Shown here one piece after another: positions 6,844-14,343 of a stretch of 64,000 bases of DNA (position 1 is the stretch's first letter; the number at the start of each line of letters is the position of its first letter). Origin of the DNA: an uncultured Actinomycetes bacterium (GTDB taxonomy: Bacteria > Actinomycetota > UBA4738 > HRBIN12). Under the pieces are notes generated by a model. It worked only from the letters and a program-made list of their open reading frames with translations. It ran no database searches and was not told where the DNA came from. The stretch covers positions 1,799,088-1,863,087 of the forward strand of contig CAVZKD010000007.1 of the NCBI GenBank assembly GCA_963775735.1. The letters run 5' to 3'. The position numbers were made by a program, and so were the translations under genes.

Positions 6844-8305
6844 TCAGAAGTTGAGCAGCCTCGTCTGCTGGATCGACTGGACGGCGATCCGCAGGAACGT
6901 GGCCTCGAGGTCGGTGCCGCGCGACTCGCAGAAGTAGAAGTCGTTGTCGGTCTGCTCGGTCAGCGGGTTCGCGACCGTGTCGCACCCCCCGGGCGTGTTG
7001 TCACCGACGACCCCGGCCGGCGGGGGGCTCGCCATGTCGGCCAGGAACCTGGTTGCGAAGTCCCCACCGGAGGGCGGAGGTCCGTACGGGCTGGCCGTGG
7101 TGTCGAACCCGCAGCGCGCGCCGGACGCGCCGTAGGCGATCGTGAAGATCAGCACCCCGTTCGCCTTCGCGTTGGCTGCGCGGGTGATCGCGTACTGGCA
7201 CGGCTGGTTGAACCGCGGTTGGTTCGCCTCGCCGTCGGCGAAGTACACGATGACGTCCGGCACGTCGACCCTCGAGCCGGCGAGCATGTTCGCCGCGGCG
7301 TGCAGCGGGTCGCCGTGGTTCGTGTGGCCAGCGCCGGTCGGCGTCACGTTGTTGACGGAGGTGGCCCGCATCAGGCAGTTCACCGTGCTGACGAGCGTGC
7401 TGCCGCTGTTCAGCGTGCCGTCGGAGTTCTGGTAGTCGTTCGTGATGCTCGACCAGCCTCCAGCGGTCCCCTGCCGCGTTGGGCACGCTCGGGTACGTCT
7501 GGGTCGGCTGCGTGTCGCACAGGTTCACGAACGGGCTCGTCCGGTGGTACGGGAGCGCCACCAGGCCGATCGACACGTCGTCCGGGTCGTAGAACTCGAG
7601 GATCGAGTCCCTCGCGGCGGACGAGTTCGAGATCGCGGCCTTCACGTTGGCGATGTCCGCGTCGCTCATGCTCGTCGATCGGTCGACGACGAGGACGACG
7701 TCGAGCGGCGAGGACGCCTGGCCGCAGAACCCCTTGCACGCCGCCGCGCGGACCGCGCCCGTCGTGCCGGAATCGAACCCGAGGATCGGCGCGAACAGGT
7801 ACTGCACCGTGCTCGACGCCGTGAGCTTGATCGTGTTGCAGAGATCGCCGCCGTACGGGTTGCAGACGTGGTACGCGCGGCCGGCCCGGCTCGTCCACCC
7901 GCCCGACCACGTCCCTGCGGTCACGGGCCCGCAGGCGAAGAGGAGATCGGGGCTGTCGTGGCCCCCGTCGCCGTCCGGGTCCGAGACGACGCAGCCGAAC
8001 TCGATGATCAAGGACGAGCCGGTGGCCGACGGACCGTTCGCCTCGGCGACCTGTCGCGCGGTGGCTTCGGCGGCGCCCCCGGCGGTGGAACCCTGGACGG
8101 GCATGAGCCCCGCGCCCGCGAGCGAGCCGAGGTCCACGGCCGCCTGCAGGATGTGCCGCTCGTGCCGCAGGCGCGCGATGTCGAACATCACCGCCGCGGA
8201 GCCGAGCAGCGCGGTAAGCATGAGCGCGACCACGACGGCCACGACCCCGCGCTCGTCGTTCAGTCGCGCGAGGCCGAGACGTGCCAGCACGCGCGGGCGG
8301 TTCAC
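6844..8305 (-). pseudogene. TadG-like pilus assembly protein with TadE/G N-terminal helix and C-terminal vWA domain; frame broken once at 7468-7471
   Basis: The N-terminal part lies in the ORF 7001..8488 frame from GTG 8305 (VNRPRVLARLGLARLNDERGVVAVVVALMLTALLGSAAVMFDIARL ... VVLVVDRSTSMS MIDAS-like motif). After a C4/G4 run the protein continues in the ORF 6844..7383 frame (..SSITNDYQNSDGTLNSGSTLVSTVNCLMRATS..VIVYFADGEAN..IFTIAYG). Confidence 0.7.
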
Positions 8306-8796
8306 TGGCCCTCGAACCTCGCCTCGGCCCTGGAGGTCATGGACATGTCCGCGCCGAGCCCGACGAATCCCGGGAGCGGCGTGATGTAGTCGTAGCTGTA
8401 GGTCGACGTGATGCGGACGATGTCGCCCGCATCCCAGTCGACGGCCGACCCGCAGCTCGTGAACATCGTGCTGCCGGCCGGCGCGCACTCGATCACGACG
8501 GTCAGGTTGGCCTGATCGAGGAAGCTCGACGCGCCGCGCACGCGGGCCTCGATGTTGGTCTGGTTCGGATCCACGGCCGCGAGCCTCGCGCCCTCGCGGA
8601 CGCCGTTCTGCGTCGAGTCCCAGGCGTGGTAGCCGAAGCCGAACTCGATGATGCCGAGGATCAGCATCAACATCAGCGGCAGGATGAGCGCGAACTCGAC
8701 GGCGACCGCTCCGCGTTCGGAACGCGGATCCGCGGGGCTGATGCCCCGATCGATCGCTCTCTCGAGCGCACGTCGCTGATGTGTTTGCACGGCCAT
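8302..8796 (-). CDS. TadE-like pilus assembly protein
   Basis: 164-aa ORF with ERGAVAVEFALILPLMLMLILGIIEFG, a TadE N-terminal motif. The stop overlaps the tadG-like start as GTGA. Confidence 0.75.
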   Translation of the reverse strand: MAVQTHQRRALERAIDRGISPADPRSERGAVAVEFALILPLMLMLILGIIEFGFGYHAWDSTQNGVREGARLAAVDPNQTNIEARVRGASSFLDQANLTVVIECAPAGSTMFTSCGSAVDWDAGDIVRITSTYSYDYITPLPGFVGLGADMSMTSRAEARFEGQ

Positions 8797-8954: not shown

Positions 8955-10340
8955 GTGCGACGACCCTCCCTCCGATCCGCGCTCGTCCTGGCGCTGCTGG
9001 CCGCCGCCTGCACGAGCGACCCCGCGGTCGGTCCGGGCACCGCGCCCCCATCCGGTTCCTCGGCCTCCGGTCCGGCGGCCTCCGGTCCGACGGGGGAGAC
9101 GCCACCGGTCGGGCTGCAACCTGCGGCTCGTGAAGACGACCGGCGAAGGCGTTCGGGGAACGGTCCGTCCCCGACGCCTCGCGGAGCCCGCCGAAGCGAT
9201 CCGACGCACGCTCGAGGACCTGTACGAAGACGCGATCGCGGACCCCGGGGTCCGTGCTCGAGCACTTCGCCGCATCGGCCCGAGAGCAGGCGCGCCGGAG
9301 CGTCGACCGTCTGCTCCTCGGACCGATGGAGCCCGAGCGAGCCGTCCTGAAGCTCCGGTTCCTCGCCGACGCCCGGCGACGCGCGGAGGCCGCGTTCGCC
9401 GACGTCCTCGTTCGAAGGCCGAGCCATGCGGCCCGAGGGTCCGGTGCGGATCGTCCAGCGGGGCGACTACGTGCTCCGGCGGTCCCCCGACGGCTGGCGG
9501 ATCATGTCGTTCGAGGTGCACCGGCGCGTCTCCGAGCGGCGGACCGAGGTGGCGTTCGCGCCCGGGCTGCTGCCCGACCGCGATCCCACGTTCGTCCTGG
9601 TGATCGGCTCCGACGCGCGCCCGGGCCAGTCCGTCACCCGGACGCGAGCGGACTCGATCCACATCGTCGGCGTGAACCCACGGCGCAACCGGGCATCGAT
9701 CGTCGGCATCCCCCGGGATGCGTGGGTGACGATCCCGGGGGCCGGGTCCGACAAGATCAACGCCGCGCTCGTCCGGGGCGGTCCCGAGCTCCTCGTGGAC
9801 ACCGTGGAACGCCTGTCGGGGGTGCGGATCGACGCGTACGTGGTCGCCGGGTTCGAGGACTTCATCACCCTCGTCGACGCGGTCGGGGGGATCGACATCC
9901 GGATCCCGTATGCGATCGACGACCGGCTCGCGCATGCCCGGTTCCGGCCGGGGCCCGAGCACCTCGGCGGACGCGAAGCGCTCGCGCTGTCGCGGGCCCG
10001 ACACGACCTACCGAGCGGCGACTTCGGGCGTTCGTTGAACCAGGGAAGAGTGATGGTCGCCGCGCTCGCTACCTTGCGGGATCAGATCGCGCACGACCGA
10101 GCGGCCATGCTTCCGTGGGTGCTCGCCGGCGTCCGACATCTGCGCACGGACCTATCGCCCACCGATGTGTTCGAGCTGGTGCTGGCTGCCTCGGCGTTCG
10201 AACCGCCGCGGGTCACGAACGCGGTCGCGCCCGGTGGGACCGGACGGGTCGGGAACCGGAGCGTGGTCTTCCTGAACGATCGCGCGTCCGCGATGTTCCG
10301 AGATCTTGCGCGTGACGGTGTCGTCGACCGGTCGACGTGA
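8955..10340 (+). pseudogene. LytR-CpsA-Psr (LCP) family protein with lipoprotein signal and extra N-terminal domain; three apparent +1 frame breaks (about 9115, 9252, 9415)
   Basis: GTG 8955 gives VRRPSLRSALVLALLAAAC (lipobox). The GC3-rich coding signal then moves through frames 0 to 1 to 2 and back to 0 (LRLVKTTGEG..EDLYEDAIADPGV / LEHFAASAREQARRSVDRLLLG..RFLADARRRAEAAFADVLV / RPEGPVRIVQRGDYVLRRSPDGWRIMSFEV). The LCP core is intact in ORF 9426..10340 (FVLVIGSDARPG..RADSIHIVGVNP..IPRDAWV..DKINAA). Confidence 0.6.
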
Positions 10341-10381
10341 GCTCGACTCGATCGTCCGGAAGCGGCGGATGGCAGAGCAGA

Positions 10382-11314
10382 TCATCGCGGGACGGGTTCC
10401 ACGGTCGTTCGGTACGAGGGGACCGGAGCCTCGCCGGTGCTCCGGCACGTGAGGACGTGCCGGAGCGTCATGGCGAGCGACACCCCGACCCGATAGCGTC
10501 CGGCGACGGTCCGGAACATCGCCACCACCTCGTCACGCGTCCCGCTCGCGGATCCCAGCTCGACGTCGTCGATGCGATCGAGGCCCAGCTCCGCGCGGAG
10601 CGCATGCTCGGCGGCTTGCACGGCCATCGAGGAACAGGAGCGCCCTCGGTAGCGGTCGAGCGCGATCCGCCCATCGAGGTACGCGCGCGCGACCCGCTCT
10701 GCGTCCGGGGGATCGACGCGTCCGAAGTAACACCCGTGCGGGAACGCGACGACGTTGCCCGCGAACCGGTCCCCGCCGATGTGGCTGCACTCCCAGGTCG
10801 GTTCCGGGAACGCGTCGGTGAGCGATCTGGCGAGCGGGCGGCCCCGCTCAGCGCAACAGGTGTCGTGACGTCCGTGTGTGCACACGAGGAAGAGCGCCGC
10901 CTCGTGCGGCTCCAGGCCCGGCCGCTCCCCCGCGCCGAGTGCCTCGAGATCGATCCCGAGCGCATCCCGGATGTGCCCGAGGCGCGCGCGTTCGATCCAC
11001 GGCGGCTCCGGACCGGATCGGATCGCGAACGCCGTCGTTCCGGAGGACGCATCGGTACCGGCCATCCGCCGGATCAACACGGGTCGGACGTTCGCGACCG
11101 CGCATCGGGCGAGCAGCTCCCGACCGAGGCCCTCCGGCAACCGGGAGTCGACGAACGCGTCGATCCCCCAGGGACCGGGGTGCTCGAGCAGCAGCCACGA
11201 CCGAACCGTCGAGGCCGTGCCGGCCATCGGTTCGGCTCGGGTCGCGCTCGCGGCGGAGCATCGGAACGGATCCGGCGACACGCGGTCAGCGTACGGGGCG
11301 AAGCAGCCCCTCAC
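10382..11314 (-). CDS. Sucrase/ferredoxin-like (thioredoxin-fold [2Fe-2S]-type) family protein
   Basis: 310-aa ORF with EPMAGTASTVRSWLLLEHPGPWG and FLVCTHGRHDTCCAERG, typical of the Suc_Fer-like family. An alternative GTG start at 11281 lies 5 nt after the upstream stop. Confidence 0.7.
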   Translation of the reverse strand: MRGCFAPYADRVSPDPFRCSAASATRAEPMAGTASTVRSWLLLEHPGPWGIDAFVDSRLPEGLGRELLARCAVANVRPVLIRRMAGTDASSGTTAFAIRSGPEPPWIERARLGHIRDALGIDLEALGAGERPGLEPHEAALFLVCTHGRHDTCCAERGRPLARSLTDAFPEPTWECSHIGGDRFAGNVVAFPHGCYFGRVDPPDAERVARAYLDGRIALDRYRGRSCSSMAVQAAEHALRAELGLDRIDDVELGSASGTRDEVVAMFRTVAGRYRVGVSLAMTLRHVLTCRSTGEAPVPSYRTTVEPVPR

Positions 11315-12477
11315 GCACGAGCCTGCGGGCGAGCACGAGGCGGCTCGCCGGATCGCGGATCTCCGGGCTCAGCTCCTCGACGCGGAAGCGTGCGTTCGAC
11401 GCGATCCGATCCATCGCGGACCGGAGCCACAGGGGCATCTCGAGCCGTCGATCCCCGAGCAGCGCGACGAGCACGTCGGCTCGCCGCACGACCTCGCACA
11501 CGGCGCCCGGCCTGCGTTCCAACAGCGTCCGGTCCTCGATCAGGTCGAGCTCCGCCTGGTCGGCGAGGACGCCGCGGAGCAGCGACGCCCGCGTGGAGCC
11601 GAACGCGATCGCTCGCTCCTGGACGAGCTCCTGCGCATCCACGCCTTCGAGCGCGTCGCCGCGGGTCGACAGCCGGGCGGTGAGTTCCGCCGCGAGGCCC
11701 CCGAGCGCTCGGTTCCAGCCGGCCGGCAGGGGGTCGTCCAGGGTCGGATCGCCCGCGGTCCGCCTCCAGGCCGCATCGAGCAGCTCGCGCCACCGGATGA
11801 CGTTCACCCCGACCGTGAGGTGACCCGACAGCGTCGTCTTGCGTCGACGCCGCGTGCGGCGTGCCTTCCGGCATGTAGATCGCGTCGCCCGGAGCGAGCT
11901 CCGCCATGATCGGCCCGCGCTCCGGTTCGCCGGGAGCCGCGTGCACCTCCCACGACTTGCGGCCGAACGCCTGCAGCACGAAGACGTCGTGCGCGTCGGC
12001 ATGGAGGGCGAGACCCTGCGCCCCCGGCGGTGAGATGTACGCGTTGACCTGACACGGATGTCCCAGATCGAGCTCGAGATCGCGGACGAAGCGCGTCACC
12101 GGCTCCCAGTAGCGGTGCAGCCCCTGCAACACGACCGTCGCCCCGTTCCGGAACAGCTCGAAGATCCGCGCGGGATCGGCCATCCCGCTCACCGGCTTCG
12201 ATCCCGTCGTACCCGAGCGCGTATAGGCGGACTCCGGGATCTGCTCACCGGCCCGCACGAGACGGAACGACGGCGTCCGGACCGACGTCGTCGAGAGGAT
12301 CCGGTCCACGTCGTCGAGTGTGAGCAGGTCGATGAACCCGCCGGGGTCGCCGCCGTCGCGTACGAGCGCACGGCGGCCCCACGCGTTCCGAAGGAACGAC
12401 GTCGGATCGCCGGTGCAGCGGACGAGGGCGGAGTCGCGCTCGGCGCCGGCGCGCTCGAGCTCGACGACGGAGGTCAC
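11286..12477 (-). pseudogene. JmjC / cupin-4 family 2-oxoglutarate Fe(II) oxygenase; one frame break near 11832
   Basis: From GTG 12477 in the ORF 11311..12753 frame: HxD in GLALHADAHDVFVLQ, then GDAIYMPEGTPHAAST. After ..STQDD the protein continues in the ORF 11286..12002 frame (LSGHLTVGVNVIRWRELL...), as expected for cupin_4 proteins. Confidence 0.7.
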
Positions 12478-12719
12478 GAGGCCTGGTCGGTCCCGTCCGC
12501 GTCCGTCATGTCGGTCCCGTCGGCATCCTGTGCATCGGTGCCGTCCTGGTCCTTCGTGTCGGTGCTGTCCTGGTCGTCCTTCGTATCGGTGCCGTCCTGG
12601 TCCTGCGCGTCCGTGCCGTCTTGGTCCCCTGGACGCTCGGTCTCCGCCGAGCCGATCCCCGAAGCGACCGTTCGGATGTCCGCATCCGTCAGGCTCTCCG
12701 GCGTCGTCGTCTCGTCCAT
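12474..12719 (-). CDS. Small acidic protein with six DxDGTD octapeptide repeats
   Basis: 81 aa from ATG 12719, which is preceded by GGGAGGAGG. Reads MDETTTPESLTDADIRTVASGIGSAETERPGDQDGTDAQDQDGTDTKDDQDSTDTKDQDGTDAQDADGTDMTDADGTDQAS. The frame is GC3-rich, and the stop overlaps the cupin start as GTGA. Confidence 0.65.
   Translation of the reverse strand: MDETTTPESLTDADIRTVASGIGSAETERPGDQDGTDAQDQDGTDTKDDQDSTDTKDQDGTDAQDADGTDMTDADGTDQAS
12486..12626 (-). repeat. Six imperfect 24-27 nt tandem repeats encoding DxDGTDxx
   Basis: Visible as repeated gtcggtgccgtcctggtc-type units on the plus strand. Confidence 0.8.
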
Positions 12720-12845
12720 GCCCGCCTCCTCCCTCGACCCTGCACGCGACCACGTGCTGTGCACGATCGTATGCCCGTTCGAACGGTTCCCGCTGGGATC
12801 GCCACCCCCCTCACCGGGTTGGGTGACGTCGGTTCGACCAGTGCG

Positions 12846-13376
12846 CTACGAGGGTGCCCCCGGTTCGCCCGACGCTCGAGCCGCCTCGAGCGCCCCCTCG
12901 AGCGACCCCTTCGACACCTTTGAGGTCCTGCTGACCTTCTCCTTTGCCTGATCCATGACGTCGAGCACCGTGGCTTCGGAGTCCGCGTCGGTGATCACCA
13001 CGAGCGAGATCTCGCCCTTCGACAGGAACGACCCGAGCTCCCGGGCCTCATGCTCCGATAACCCACGGGTGAGCAGTGAACCCACTTCACCCACCACCGC
13101 CCCGCCGGCCGCCCCCGCCGCGAGCGCCGCGAGGCCCACCGGGGGGGCCAGGACCGCGAAGAACCCGACCGCGGTCCCGTAGATCGCGCCGAGGGCCGCC
13201 CCGTGGTGCTTGGTCCGTTCGCTGATGTCCACCGTGCCGTCGTCGCGGCGGACGATCACGGCGGCGTCGTGCAGGTCGATGTGCTGGCCGTCTCCGAGCT
13301 CCTTGACCGCCTCCAAGGCGCGATCGGCGGCGGCGATGTCCCCGTACAGCCCCAAGCAGATGACCGTTCCGCTCAT
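12846..13376 (-). CDS. DUF1269-like membrane protein
   Basis: 176-aa ORF. An N-terminal soluble domain is followed by a Gly/Ala-rich hydrophobic core (GAALGAIYGTAVGFFAVLAPPVGLAALAAGAAGGAVVG) and a C-terminal soluble domain. Confidence 0.6.
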   Translation of the reverse strand: MSGTVICLGLYGDIAAADRALEAVKELGDGQHIDLHDAAVIVRRDDGTVDISERTKHHGAALGAIYGTAVGFFAVLAPPVGLAALAAGAAGGAVVGEVGSLLTRGLSEHEARELGSFLSKGEISLVVITDADSEATVLDVMDQAKEKVSRTSKVSKGSLEGALEAARASGEPGAPS

Positions 13377-13478
13377 CGAACCCGCCCTCTCCCTCGGCGA
13401 GCGTTCCTTCTATCACGATGAGCGCCGGGCCGGGCCGGGGCTAGCCTGCCCGGACCCGATCGGGAAAGGGGTTCGGCC

Positions 13479-14343
13479 ATGTCGACTTCTCGGGTCCTCC
13501 GTCGGTTCCTCGCCGCCGCGTGCGGTGTCGGCCTGTTCGCGAGCGGGATGGCCTCCGCCTCGCTCCGCTCGGCGGCGGCCGGTGACGAAGGCGACGACCT
13601 CGCTCCGACGGCGCTGCCGGGCTTCAGCGAGGTCGTCATCCTCAGTCACCGCAACGCGCCGAAGACGACACCGCTGTTCCCCGGCGACCCGCGGTTCCGT
13701 ATCGAGACGGTGTTCACCGTGCACCACGACGGCTTCTTCCTCGAGGTCGTGCACGAGGGCACGCACAGCGGCACCCACTACAGCGCGCCGTGTCACTTCC
13801 GCGCGGGAGCGCGGTGCATGGACGATCTCTCGTCCGCCGACCTCGTGCTGCCGGCGGTCGTGATCGATGTGCGCGAACAGGTCGTCCGCGGATCCCGATC
13901 ACGTCGTGACGGTCGCCGACCTGCGGGCGTGGGAGGACACGTTCGGCCAGATGCCGGAGGGTGCCGCCGTCCTGTTGTGGACCGGGTGCTCGCGGTTCTG
14001 GGCCGACGGGGACACCGACGGCGAGCCGAACTACTACAACTGTGGTTCGGGCATGTCCGGTGTGCACCAGCCGGGTTTCTCGCGGAACGCGGTGCGTTGG
14101 CTGATCGAGACCGATGTGCTCGGCAAGCGCGGCGCGCTCGGTACCGACACGTTCGGGCCCGACCCGTCGTCCGACGCGTCGTTCACACCGTCGTACCTGA
14201 CGCTCGACCGCCATCGCGTGACGATCGAGAACCTCACGGACCTCGGGTCCCTGCCGGCGACCGGGGCGTGGATCGCCCTCGGCAGCCCGAGGAACGCGAA
14301 CGGTTCCGGGGCGCCCGGGACGGTGTTCGGTTTCATCCCGTAG
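13479..14343 (+). pseudogene. Cyclase family protein (kynurenine-formamidase-like), secreted; one frame break near 13887
   Basis: Signal peptide MSTSRVLRRFLAAACGVGLFASG. Contains HEGTHSGTHYSAPCHF (HxGTHxDxPxH-like motif). After ..VIDVREQVV it continues in the ORF 13867..14343 frame (ADPDHVVTVADLRAWE...GALGTDTFGPD). Confidence 0.7.

Follow-up and report, generated by a model that had tools for sequence, protein, structure and literature searches.

What does an oxygenase modify when its gene lies directly behind that of a small, strongly acidic repeat peptide? This question is raised by a locus on the minus strand of a 64,000-nucleotide (nt) stretch of DNA from an uncultured Actinomycetes bacterium, hereafter the window. 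Three genes were confirmed there, in the order small acidic open reading frame (ORF) of 81 amino acids (aa), JmjC_2/cupin-4 oxygenase, and Suc_Fer-like protein. An original prediction, made from the sequence alone, had proposed that the first two form a dedicated pair, and the linkage supports this: a small ORF stands beside the oxygenase gene in 100 of 100 loci from several actinobacterial classes. The module is a conserved three-gene unit of Actinomycetota and is widespread. Because peptide and oxygenase are paired in every one of these loci, the oxygenase probably modifies its own peptide. We lean modestly towards the reading that the module is a dedicated pair of a peptide and a ribosomal oxygenase (ROX)-type hydroxylase, accompanied by a presumed iron-sulfur (Fe-S) protein, which makes a peptide multiply beta-hydroxylated on Asp. 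The overall interpretation given in the original prediction is partly supported.

Conservation and distribution of the module

The 100 loci were fetched from related genomes and come from uncultured soil Actinomycetota, Acidimicrobiia, Nitriliruptorales, Nocardioides, Halosaccharopolyspora, Streptomyces, Geodermatophilus, Cryptosporangium, Nakamurella, Rubrobacter and some metagenome-assembled genomes (MAGs) labelled Acidobacteriota. Cultured carriers with an intact orthologue include Nocardioides immobilis CCTCC AB 2017083 (L055) and Halosaccharopolyspora lacisalsi DSM 45975 (L039). Every one of the 100 loci has a small, Asp-rich ORF whose end falls at the oxygenase start or just ahead of it. 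A Suc_Fer-like gene lies downstream of the oxygenase in 92; of the eight loci where it was missed, five break off at a contig end. The oxygenase itself was detected in 22 of 41 close relatives and in 58 of 301 sampled Actinomycetota species (E ≤ 1e-30), its distribution being patchy even inside the window's own family; a pattern scan of GTDB genomes returned at least 595 species records.

Judged from their layout, the three genes are transcribed together and coupled in translation. The TGA stop of the small ORF (12476-12474, minus strand) and the GTG start of the oxygenase overlap as GTGA at 12477-12474, just as predicted, and the same overlap is present in 17 of 17 same-genus loci. An RNAalifold consensus of the peptide/oxygenase junction in the window's genus is weak (-9.9), with no convincing helix. 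A scan of 10200-13500 for promoter and terminator consensus sequences returned nothing and is uninformative at such GC content. Peptide and oxygenase are each single-copy in the genome.

Some loci depart from the common layout. Peptide and oxygenase occur with no Suc_Fer-like gene within 3 kb at L064, L065 (Streptomyces sp. NPDC059443) and L083. The upstream ORF of L065 is much less Asp-rich (17% over the last 70 residues) and has His and Tyr. At L087, L088 and L092, which are related MAGs, the Suc_Fer-like gene is downstream but convergent, on the strand opposite to the oxygenase.

The small acidic peptide

The peptide gene is a real, selected coding gene, with a conserved N-terminal motif and an Asp-repeat tail of variable number. 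In the window it occupies 12719..12474 (minus) and is preceded by a Shine-Dalgarno sequence, GGGAGGAGG, at 12733..12725 (minus), 5 nt before the ATG, as read directly from the sequence. The product, a candidate precursor or substrate of 81 aa and net charge about -22, is MDETTTPESLTDADIRTVASGIGSAETERPG followed by DQDGTDAQ, DQDGTDTKD, DQDSTDTK, DQDGTDAQ, DADGTDMT and DADGTDQAS. The strong ribosome-binding site and the six octapeptide repeats had both been predicted, and translation and Tandem Repeats Finder (period 24 nt, 5.8 copies, score 117) agree with the repeats. The six tandem octapeptides, D-x-D-(G/S)-T-D-x-x, are encoded by 24-nt DNA repeats at 12477..12626 (minus) and form the putative core, or modified region. 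Ahead of them lies the motif LTDADIRT (12669..12692, minus), which was delimited from a logo of 80 unique peptides and is the putative recognition ("leader") element.

The peptide was judged to be coding because of its GC pattern at third codon positions (GC3), its ratio of nonsynonymous to synonymous substitution (dN/dS) of 0.2-0.35, and its strong Shine-Dalgarno sequence. GC at the three codon positions is 0.67/0.50/0.87 in the small ORF, similar to the downstream genes (0.72/0.52/0.89 and 0.72/0.58/0.85), and its two alternative frames are unlike the neighbouring genes in this respect. Compared with the closest relative, the peptide has a dN/dS of 0.2; for the leader, compared within the genus, the value is 0.35. 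GC3, dN/dS and conservation across classes at the protein, not the DNA, level exclude that the ORF arose by chance in a DNA repeat. It is noteworthy that the repeat DNA is unrelated between lineages, so the conserved entity is the protein.

Across the family, the N-terminal motif is recognisable in 83 of 99 extracted peptides. In the 80 unique peptides it reads L(75)-x-D(79)-[E/D]-[D/E]-[I/M](78)-x-T(76), and a linker of 10-20 residues separates it from the repeat region. The repeat unit changes with lineage: DxDGTD in the window, DGVD(S/T)TD(S/T) in Acidimicrobiia, DGGA in Geodermatophilus and Cryptosporangium, and DSSDSDD and DTADTA in further lineages, with 3 to more than 12 repeats. In all 100 loci the layout is precursor-like: the peptide gene adjoins that of the putative modifying enzyme, and a conserved leader is followed by a core of variable repeat type and number.

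The composition of the core points to Asp. In the 80 peptides, Asp makes up 30% of the core (median 19, range 9-32), successive Asp residues are spaced by 2 or 3 in 86% of cases, and adjacent DD is depleted five-fold. The residue after Asp is G, A, S or T in 83%; G is the commonest (31%, two-fold enriched), 70 of the 80 peptides have at least two DG, and three have none. Asp is the sole functional side chain common to the DxDGTD, DGVDSTD and DGGA repeats, the last of which contains only D, G and A. Isolated Asp residues between small residues are the sequence pattern that would be expected if an enzyme threads each site into a deep active site.

The best explanation of the product is a ribosomally made, intrinsically disordered and strongly acidic small protein. 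The likeness to Ca-binding Asp loops suggested in the original prediction did not hold, since the peptide matches no profile of the thrombospondin type 3, Excalibur or EF-hand (DxDxDG) families, and the DGGA and DTADTA repeat types are without the spaced DxDxDG...D/E motif. The peptide has no Pfam or NCBIfam match at E < 0.01, and an NCBIfam scan of all parts of the module gave no match. In a collection of 5.8 billion proteins only 21 relatives of the peptide were present, all named "hypothetical protein" and without a Pfam domain; gene callers rarely predict such peptides. An exact look-up of the three proteins of the window in a collection of 15 billion proteins found none of them.

The oxygenase

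The oxygenase matches Pfam JmjC_2 (PF08007; E 4e-15 to 4e-18) and contains the predicted LHADAH and GTPHAA motifs. In the window its gene is read in two parts. The 5' part (12477..11839, minus) has the GTG start and encodes residues 1-213 of a ROX-like JmjC/cupin-4 Fe(II)/2-oxoglutarate (2OG) oxygenase. The 3' part, in another frame (11836..11286, minus; stop TGA at 11288-11286), encodes the end of the JmjC barrel (SGHLTVG), a helical domain and a C-terminal winged-helix domain resembling the RiPP recognition element (RRE), where RiPP denotes a peptide that is made on the ribosome and modified after translation. The identity assigned to this gene in the original prediction therefore stands, and its intact frame does not, as a 1-nt insertion at 11837 had been overlooked.

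The catalytic residues are all in the 5' part. Alignment to NO66 (HMMER) pairs H159 (12003-12001), D161 (11997-11995) and H208 (11856-11854), the Fe ligands, with the HYD...H of NO66, and K174 (11958-11956), the 2OG-binding Lys, with the lysine of its GRK. All four are invariant across 51 homologues. A sequence comparison with solved structures places NO66 (E 1e-14), MINA53 (8e-12), YcfD (6e-7), YxbC and Rhodothermus tROX nearest; these phmmer values, from 1e-14 for NO66 to 6e-7 for YcfD, compare with ≤ 1e-100 within the module's own oxygenase family.

An AlphaFold2 model was built on an intact orthologue (L021, 68% identical; pLDDT 92.6, pTM 0.88). Structural alignments of this model to NO66 (E 8e-25, TM 0.64-0.66), MINA53, YcfD and tROX span 430-450 columns, at 18-23% identity. 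The C-terminal domain, whose half of the protein has no Pfam match, is predicted to consist of several beta-strands followed by three helices. In the model, the oxygenase has the ROX architecture of a JmjC domain, a helical dimerisation domain and a C-terminal winged helix. Judged by sequence, it is not orthologous to YcfD, NO66 or MINA53. The original prediction had named grouping with ribosomal-protein hydroxylases of known substrate as an outcome contrary to its proposal; the proposal survives this check, the oxygenase being only 18-23% identical to them.

The Suc_Fer-like, presumed Fe-S protein

The third gene (11281..10382, minus) encodes a Suc_Fer-like protein of 299 aa, the centre of which is a thioredoxin-like [2Fe-2S] ferredoxin domain. 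Its start is most likely the GTG at 11281, 4 nt past the oxygenase TGA, at the same position as in relatives. Both the predicted family and the predicted abutment are upheld: the protein matches PF06999 (E 8e-22, 78.6 bits against a cut-off of 34.9) and contains CTHGRHDTCC. Motif conservation identifies a CX8C, formed by C134 (10882-10880) and C143 (10855-10853), and an HX3D, formed by H167 (10783-10781) and D171 (10771-10769). This second motif, H-x-G-G-D, is present in nearly all readable module proteins (HxGGDR in about 80, HIGGE in 1), with D171 at least 90% conserved. C8, C142 and C279 are additional invariant Cys residues. Together these residues suggest a Cys2-His-Asp (or Cys-rich) cluster site.

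In the AlphaFold2 model (pLDDT 96.3), the central domain comprises about 100 residues and resembles the Aquifex Fd4 and Azotobacter FeSI ferredoxins (1m2d, 1f37, 5abr) with a TM(target) of 0.65-0.71 in Foldseek. The N- and C-terminal domains gave no structural match in the same search. By inference only, the protein may act as the redox partner of the oxygenase.

What does the oxygenase modify?

Our preferred reading can be set out as a series of steps. The oxygenase would dock on the conserved N-terminal motif of the peptide, probably via its C-terminal winged-helix (RRE-like) domain, which may be the part that reads this motif. Many sites in the repeats would then be hydroxylated, most likely the Asp C-beta in D-G, D-A, D-S and D-T. 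C-3 of protein side chains is the position that ROX enzymes hydroxylate, and by analogy Asp beta-hydroxylation of the repeats is plausible. This would yield a poly-(beta-hydroxy-Asp) polyanion. For the Fe-S protein, two roles are conceivable: it could keep the oxygenase iron reduced, or it could oxidise the hydroxylated peptide further in a second step. Since neither a protease nor an exporter has been conserved alongside the module, the final product is probably the modified small protein at full length, at work inside the cell, where it would plausibly be a metal (Fe/Ca) ligand. Beta-hydroxy-Asp binds Fe(III) strongly in siderophores, and because of this metal handling would, by analogy, be a reasonable role.

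A more far-reaching form of this reading is put forward tentatively, as we doubt it more than we believe it. In this form the module would represent an undescribed class of encoded modified polyanions, found in about 1 in 5 Actinomycetota species, in which the winged helix is RRE-like, 10-30 Asp residues are processively beta-hydroxylated, the Cys2-His-Asp [2Fe-2S] protein is a reductant or second-step oxidase, and the product is an intracellular Fe/Ca ligand. If true, the peptide would be the first non-ribosomal, operon-defined substrate for ROX enzymes. The substrate question is directly testable, since the candidate substrate shares an operon with the enzyme in every genome examined.

Several points weigh against a multiply hydroxylated peptide made by a dedicated three-gene module. 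Formally, 2OG oxygenases need no electron donor, and the Fe-S protein is not strictly obligatory, given that 3 of about 95 evaluable loci are without its gene. Clustering of every ORF of at least 100 aa in 80 loci with 3-kb flanks revealed no third recurrent family, be it a protease, a transporter or a regulator; the next most frequent neighbour, a methyltransferase-like ORF, occurs in 10 of the 80. Lacking a conserved leader protease or transporter, the module falls outside the usual definition of a RiPP cluster. With a median pI of 5.8 the oxygenase is itself mildly acidic overall, and global charge complementarity to the -22 peptide is therefore absent. Finally, the modified residue could lie in the conserved N-terminal motif and not in the repeats.

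The lack of charge complementarity is in keeping with a reading that we consider unlikely, in which the peptide accompanies the oxygenase without being its substrate (as an inhibitor, substrate mimic, chaperone, or Fe(II)/Ca(II)-buffering cofactor) and the true substrate is elsewhere, for example a ribosomal protein. The oxygenase has the full ROX architecture, all characterised ROX enzymes target ribosomal proteins, and disordered polyanionic proteins frequently serve as mimics or metal buffers. Core ribosome modification, however, fits poorly with a module that is accessory and patchy (58 of 301 species, and variable within one family), and the oxygenase shares only 18-23% identity with ROX enzymes whose substrate is known. 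In addition, a conserved leader with variable repeats, in which Asp is isolated by small residues, resembles a substrate for processive modification. The same leader invites a further alternative, namely a single hydroxylation inside L-x-D-E-D-I-x-T that acts as an O2/2OG-dependent switch, with the Asp tail as an unmodified polyanion that binds metal or mineral. No other part of the peptide approaches this motif in conservation (D in 79 of 80, T in 76 of 80), and FIH, ROX and similar protein hydroxylases usually target one defined residue. Against such a switch, which we hold to be quite improbable, the conserved segment in RiPP systems is normally the docking site and not the modified one; moreover, the repeats range in number from 3 to more than 12 but are constrained in their chemistry, suggesting that the tail is under a constraint related to the enzyme.

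The leader/core-like architecture would also suit a classical secreted RiPP, for example a beta-hydroxy-Asp metallophore that is cleaved from its leader and exported. Beta-hydroxy-Asp is known as a siderophore ligand for Fe(III), and the window has a gene for a low-affinity iron permease 1.7 kb away. This possibility appears very remote in view of the missing protease, transporter and regulator in the 80 loci, of a peptide with neither a signal peptide nor a double-glycine motif, and of a neighbourhood that differs even in the genus.

Comparison with known systems

To our knowledge, the characterised ROX/cupin-4 enzymes, including the bacterial ones, are ribosomal-protein hydroxylases that act on C-3 of His or Arg. 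The module oxygenase shares PF08007, the HxD...H triad, the 2OG lysine and the three-domain architecture with NO66/RIOX1, MINA53/RIOX2, E. coli YcfD/RoxA and Rhodothermus marinus tROX. Unlike these it is patchy in distribution, always encoded behind its own acidic repeat peptide and usually before an Fe-S protein, with the identity of 18-23% given above. Its likely substrate, in contrast to those of ROX enzymes, is a co-encoded peptide without a His or Arg target.

Fe/2OG and JmjC hydroxylases that act on co-encoded ribosomal peptides are already known. For example, BipG is a JmjC ornithine hydroxylase that acts on the co-encoded RiPP precursor of biphenomycin in Streptomyces (PMC12707348), and CzlI is a JmjC Phe hydroxylase that does so on the precursor of curacozole, also in Streptomyces (PMC11575548). 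Proteins of PF08007 have RRE-like folds and are encountered in RiPP-like settings (PMC12710340). As in the module, BipG and CzlI combine a JmjC Fe/2OG enzyme and a ribosomally made peptide in one actinobacterial cluster. They are, however, accessory enzymes of large clusters with class-defining enzymes, proteases and transporters, whereas the module oxygenase is the only recognisable modifying enzyme. CzlI is YxbC-like and not three-domain ROX-like, and the BipG and CzlI cores are short and non-repetitive, in contrast to the polyanionic repeat of the module peptide.

A chemical parallel is SmaO, an Fe/2OG enzyme of a graspetide cluster, which beta-hydroxylates Asp in DGDG and needs the following Gly; a second metalloenzyme, SmaX, turns the resulting beta-hydroxy-Asp into aminomalonate (PMC12186529). 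The module likewise pairs an Fe/2OG oxygenase with a second metalloprotein, and its peptides are mostly rich in D-G, although three of the 80 have none. SmaO differs from the module oxygenase by its published description, which makes no mention of JmjC or ROX (PMC12186529). SmaX is an HD-domain enzyme, whereas the third protein of the module is a thioredoxin-like ferredoxin. The SmaO precursor, unlike the module peptide, has a double-glycine leader, is exported by a peptidase-containing ABC transporter (PCAT), and is modified at only two Asp residues.

AspH, acting on calcium-binding epidermal growth factor-like (cbEGF) domains, and FIH, acting on ankyrin repeats, carry out 2OG-dependent hydroxylation of Asp/Asn C-beta in repeated modules, some of the sites being Ca-binding. 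These enzymes belong to clades different from that of the module oxygenase (for FIH, the Foldseek E is only about 1e-7), and their substrates are folded domains and not operon-encoded partners, whereas the module peptide is a disordered repeat.

For Apd1-like thioredoxin-fold Fe-S proteins we know of no function, even in yeast. The third protein of the module is like Apd1 and Aim32 in its PF06999 match, its thioredoxin-like ferredoxin fold and its CX8C. Apd1 and Aim32 bind their cluster through CX8C...HX3H, with bis-His coordination (PMC8482512). In the module protein the second His is replaced by the near-invariant Asp of HxGGD, and the additional Cys residues (C8, C142, C279) and terminal domains are extra.

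The original prediction knew of no described system of this kind. For the cassette itself this still stands, as full-text searches found no description of a JmjC/cupin-4, Suc_Fer-like and Asp-rich peptide cassette; for the general kind it does not, given that BipG, CzlI and SmaO act on co-encoded peptides. In its passages that matched the search terms, the survey of bacterial JmjC neighbourhoods by Iyer et al. (2010) lists bacterial MINA/NO66-like proteins and mentions no such neighbourhood (PMC2938197). As far as we found, what is new is that a ROX-architecture enzyme would be the sole modifying enzyme, that its candidate substrate is a polyanion of multiple repeats, and that the putative Fe-S partner is thioredoxin-like, with Cys/His/Asp residues. 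If the peptide is multiply hydroxylated, it would found a new family of post-translationally modified small proteins with a likely link to metal handling, give Apd1-like thioredoxin-fold Fe-S proteins a new partner role, and make the JmjC winged-helix domain a leader-recognition element.

The frameshift in this assembly

The frame of the oxygenase gene is broken at 11837 (minus) by one extra base, an A on the minus strand, in the context CAAG[A]CGACG, as placed by alignment with six relatives. The extra base is absent from the closest relative (95% DNA identity) and from 18 other relatives. In all 19 relatives fetched the oxygenase is intact, with 377-396 codons. The closest relative, G014 (contig C15), belongs to the same genus and is syntenic with positions 1-56575 of the window, about 50 kb aligning at about 95% identity. 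Over these 50 kb, the two sequences differ by about 40 isolated single-base insertions or deletions (indels), or about 1 per 1.3 kb, the one at 11837 included. Long ORFs are cut short by them at 15 sites in G014 and at 6 in the window.

Two neighbouring genes carry such differences. A PF04199 cyclase gene (13479-14343, plus), about 2 kb from the break in the oxygenase, is split by a 1-nt insertion at 13884 relative to G014, and the resulting ORFs cover profile positions 3-64 and 68-142. At the DUF1269 membrane protein gene (12846-13376, minus), 1-nt indels relative to G014 lie at 13149 and 13440, and the ORF spanning it is longer in G014 (972 against 561 nt).

The window genome is a MAG of 9 contigs, one of which is 2.77 Mb long, and is for this reason taken to be a long-read assembly; both it and the G014 assembly look like error-prone long-read MAG assemblies. 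Since the roughly 40 isolated indels break ORFs in both assemblies, including the nearby cyclase, the insertion at 11837 is rated as probably an assembly error. The alternative is that the insertion is real, the oxygenase inactive and the module a recent pseudogene in this genome, which would count against an active pair here. It is the less probable outcome, but a doubt of some weight: the insertion lies outside any homopolymer (CAAG[A]CG), all 19 relatives have an intact oxygenase, and the module is accessory and often lost. Against it stand the frequency of 1-nt indels relative to so close a relative, which break further conserved genes in both assemblies, and the state of the locus itself, in which the remainder of the oxygenase gene is undamaged and both flanking genes are intact. 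An exact-pattern scan of metagenome contigs for the sequence around 11837 found neither allele.

Genomic surroundings

In the window, the DUF1269 gene lies upstream of the module and a convergent LCP-family gene downstream. In other members of the window's genus, XdhC/YHS-type genes take the upstream place of DUF1269. The low-affinity iron permease family gene (PF04120; 14372-14821, plus) is not a conserved neighbour of the module. Together with an FmdB-type zinc-ribbon gene (PF09723; 14839-15075, minus) it lies about 1.7-2.5 kb upstream. Farther off, the window has an insertion of about 4 kb (41.9-46.0 kb) with no counterpart in the aligned region of G014. An internal duplication at 4.6-6.8 kb cross-matches the G014 region at 72-78% identity and possibly represents tandem paralogous tad/pilus genes; a gene for a TadE-like pilus assembly protein (PF07811) is located at 8302-8796 (minus).

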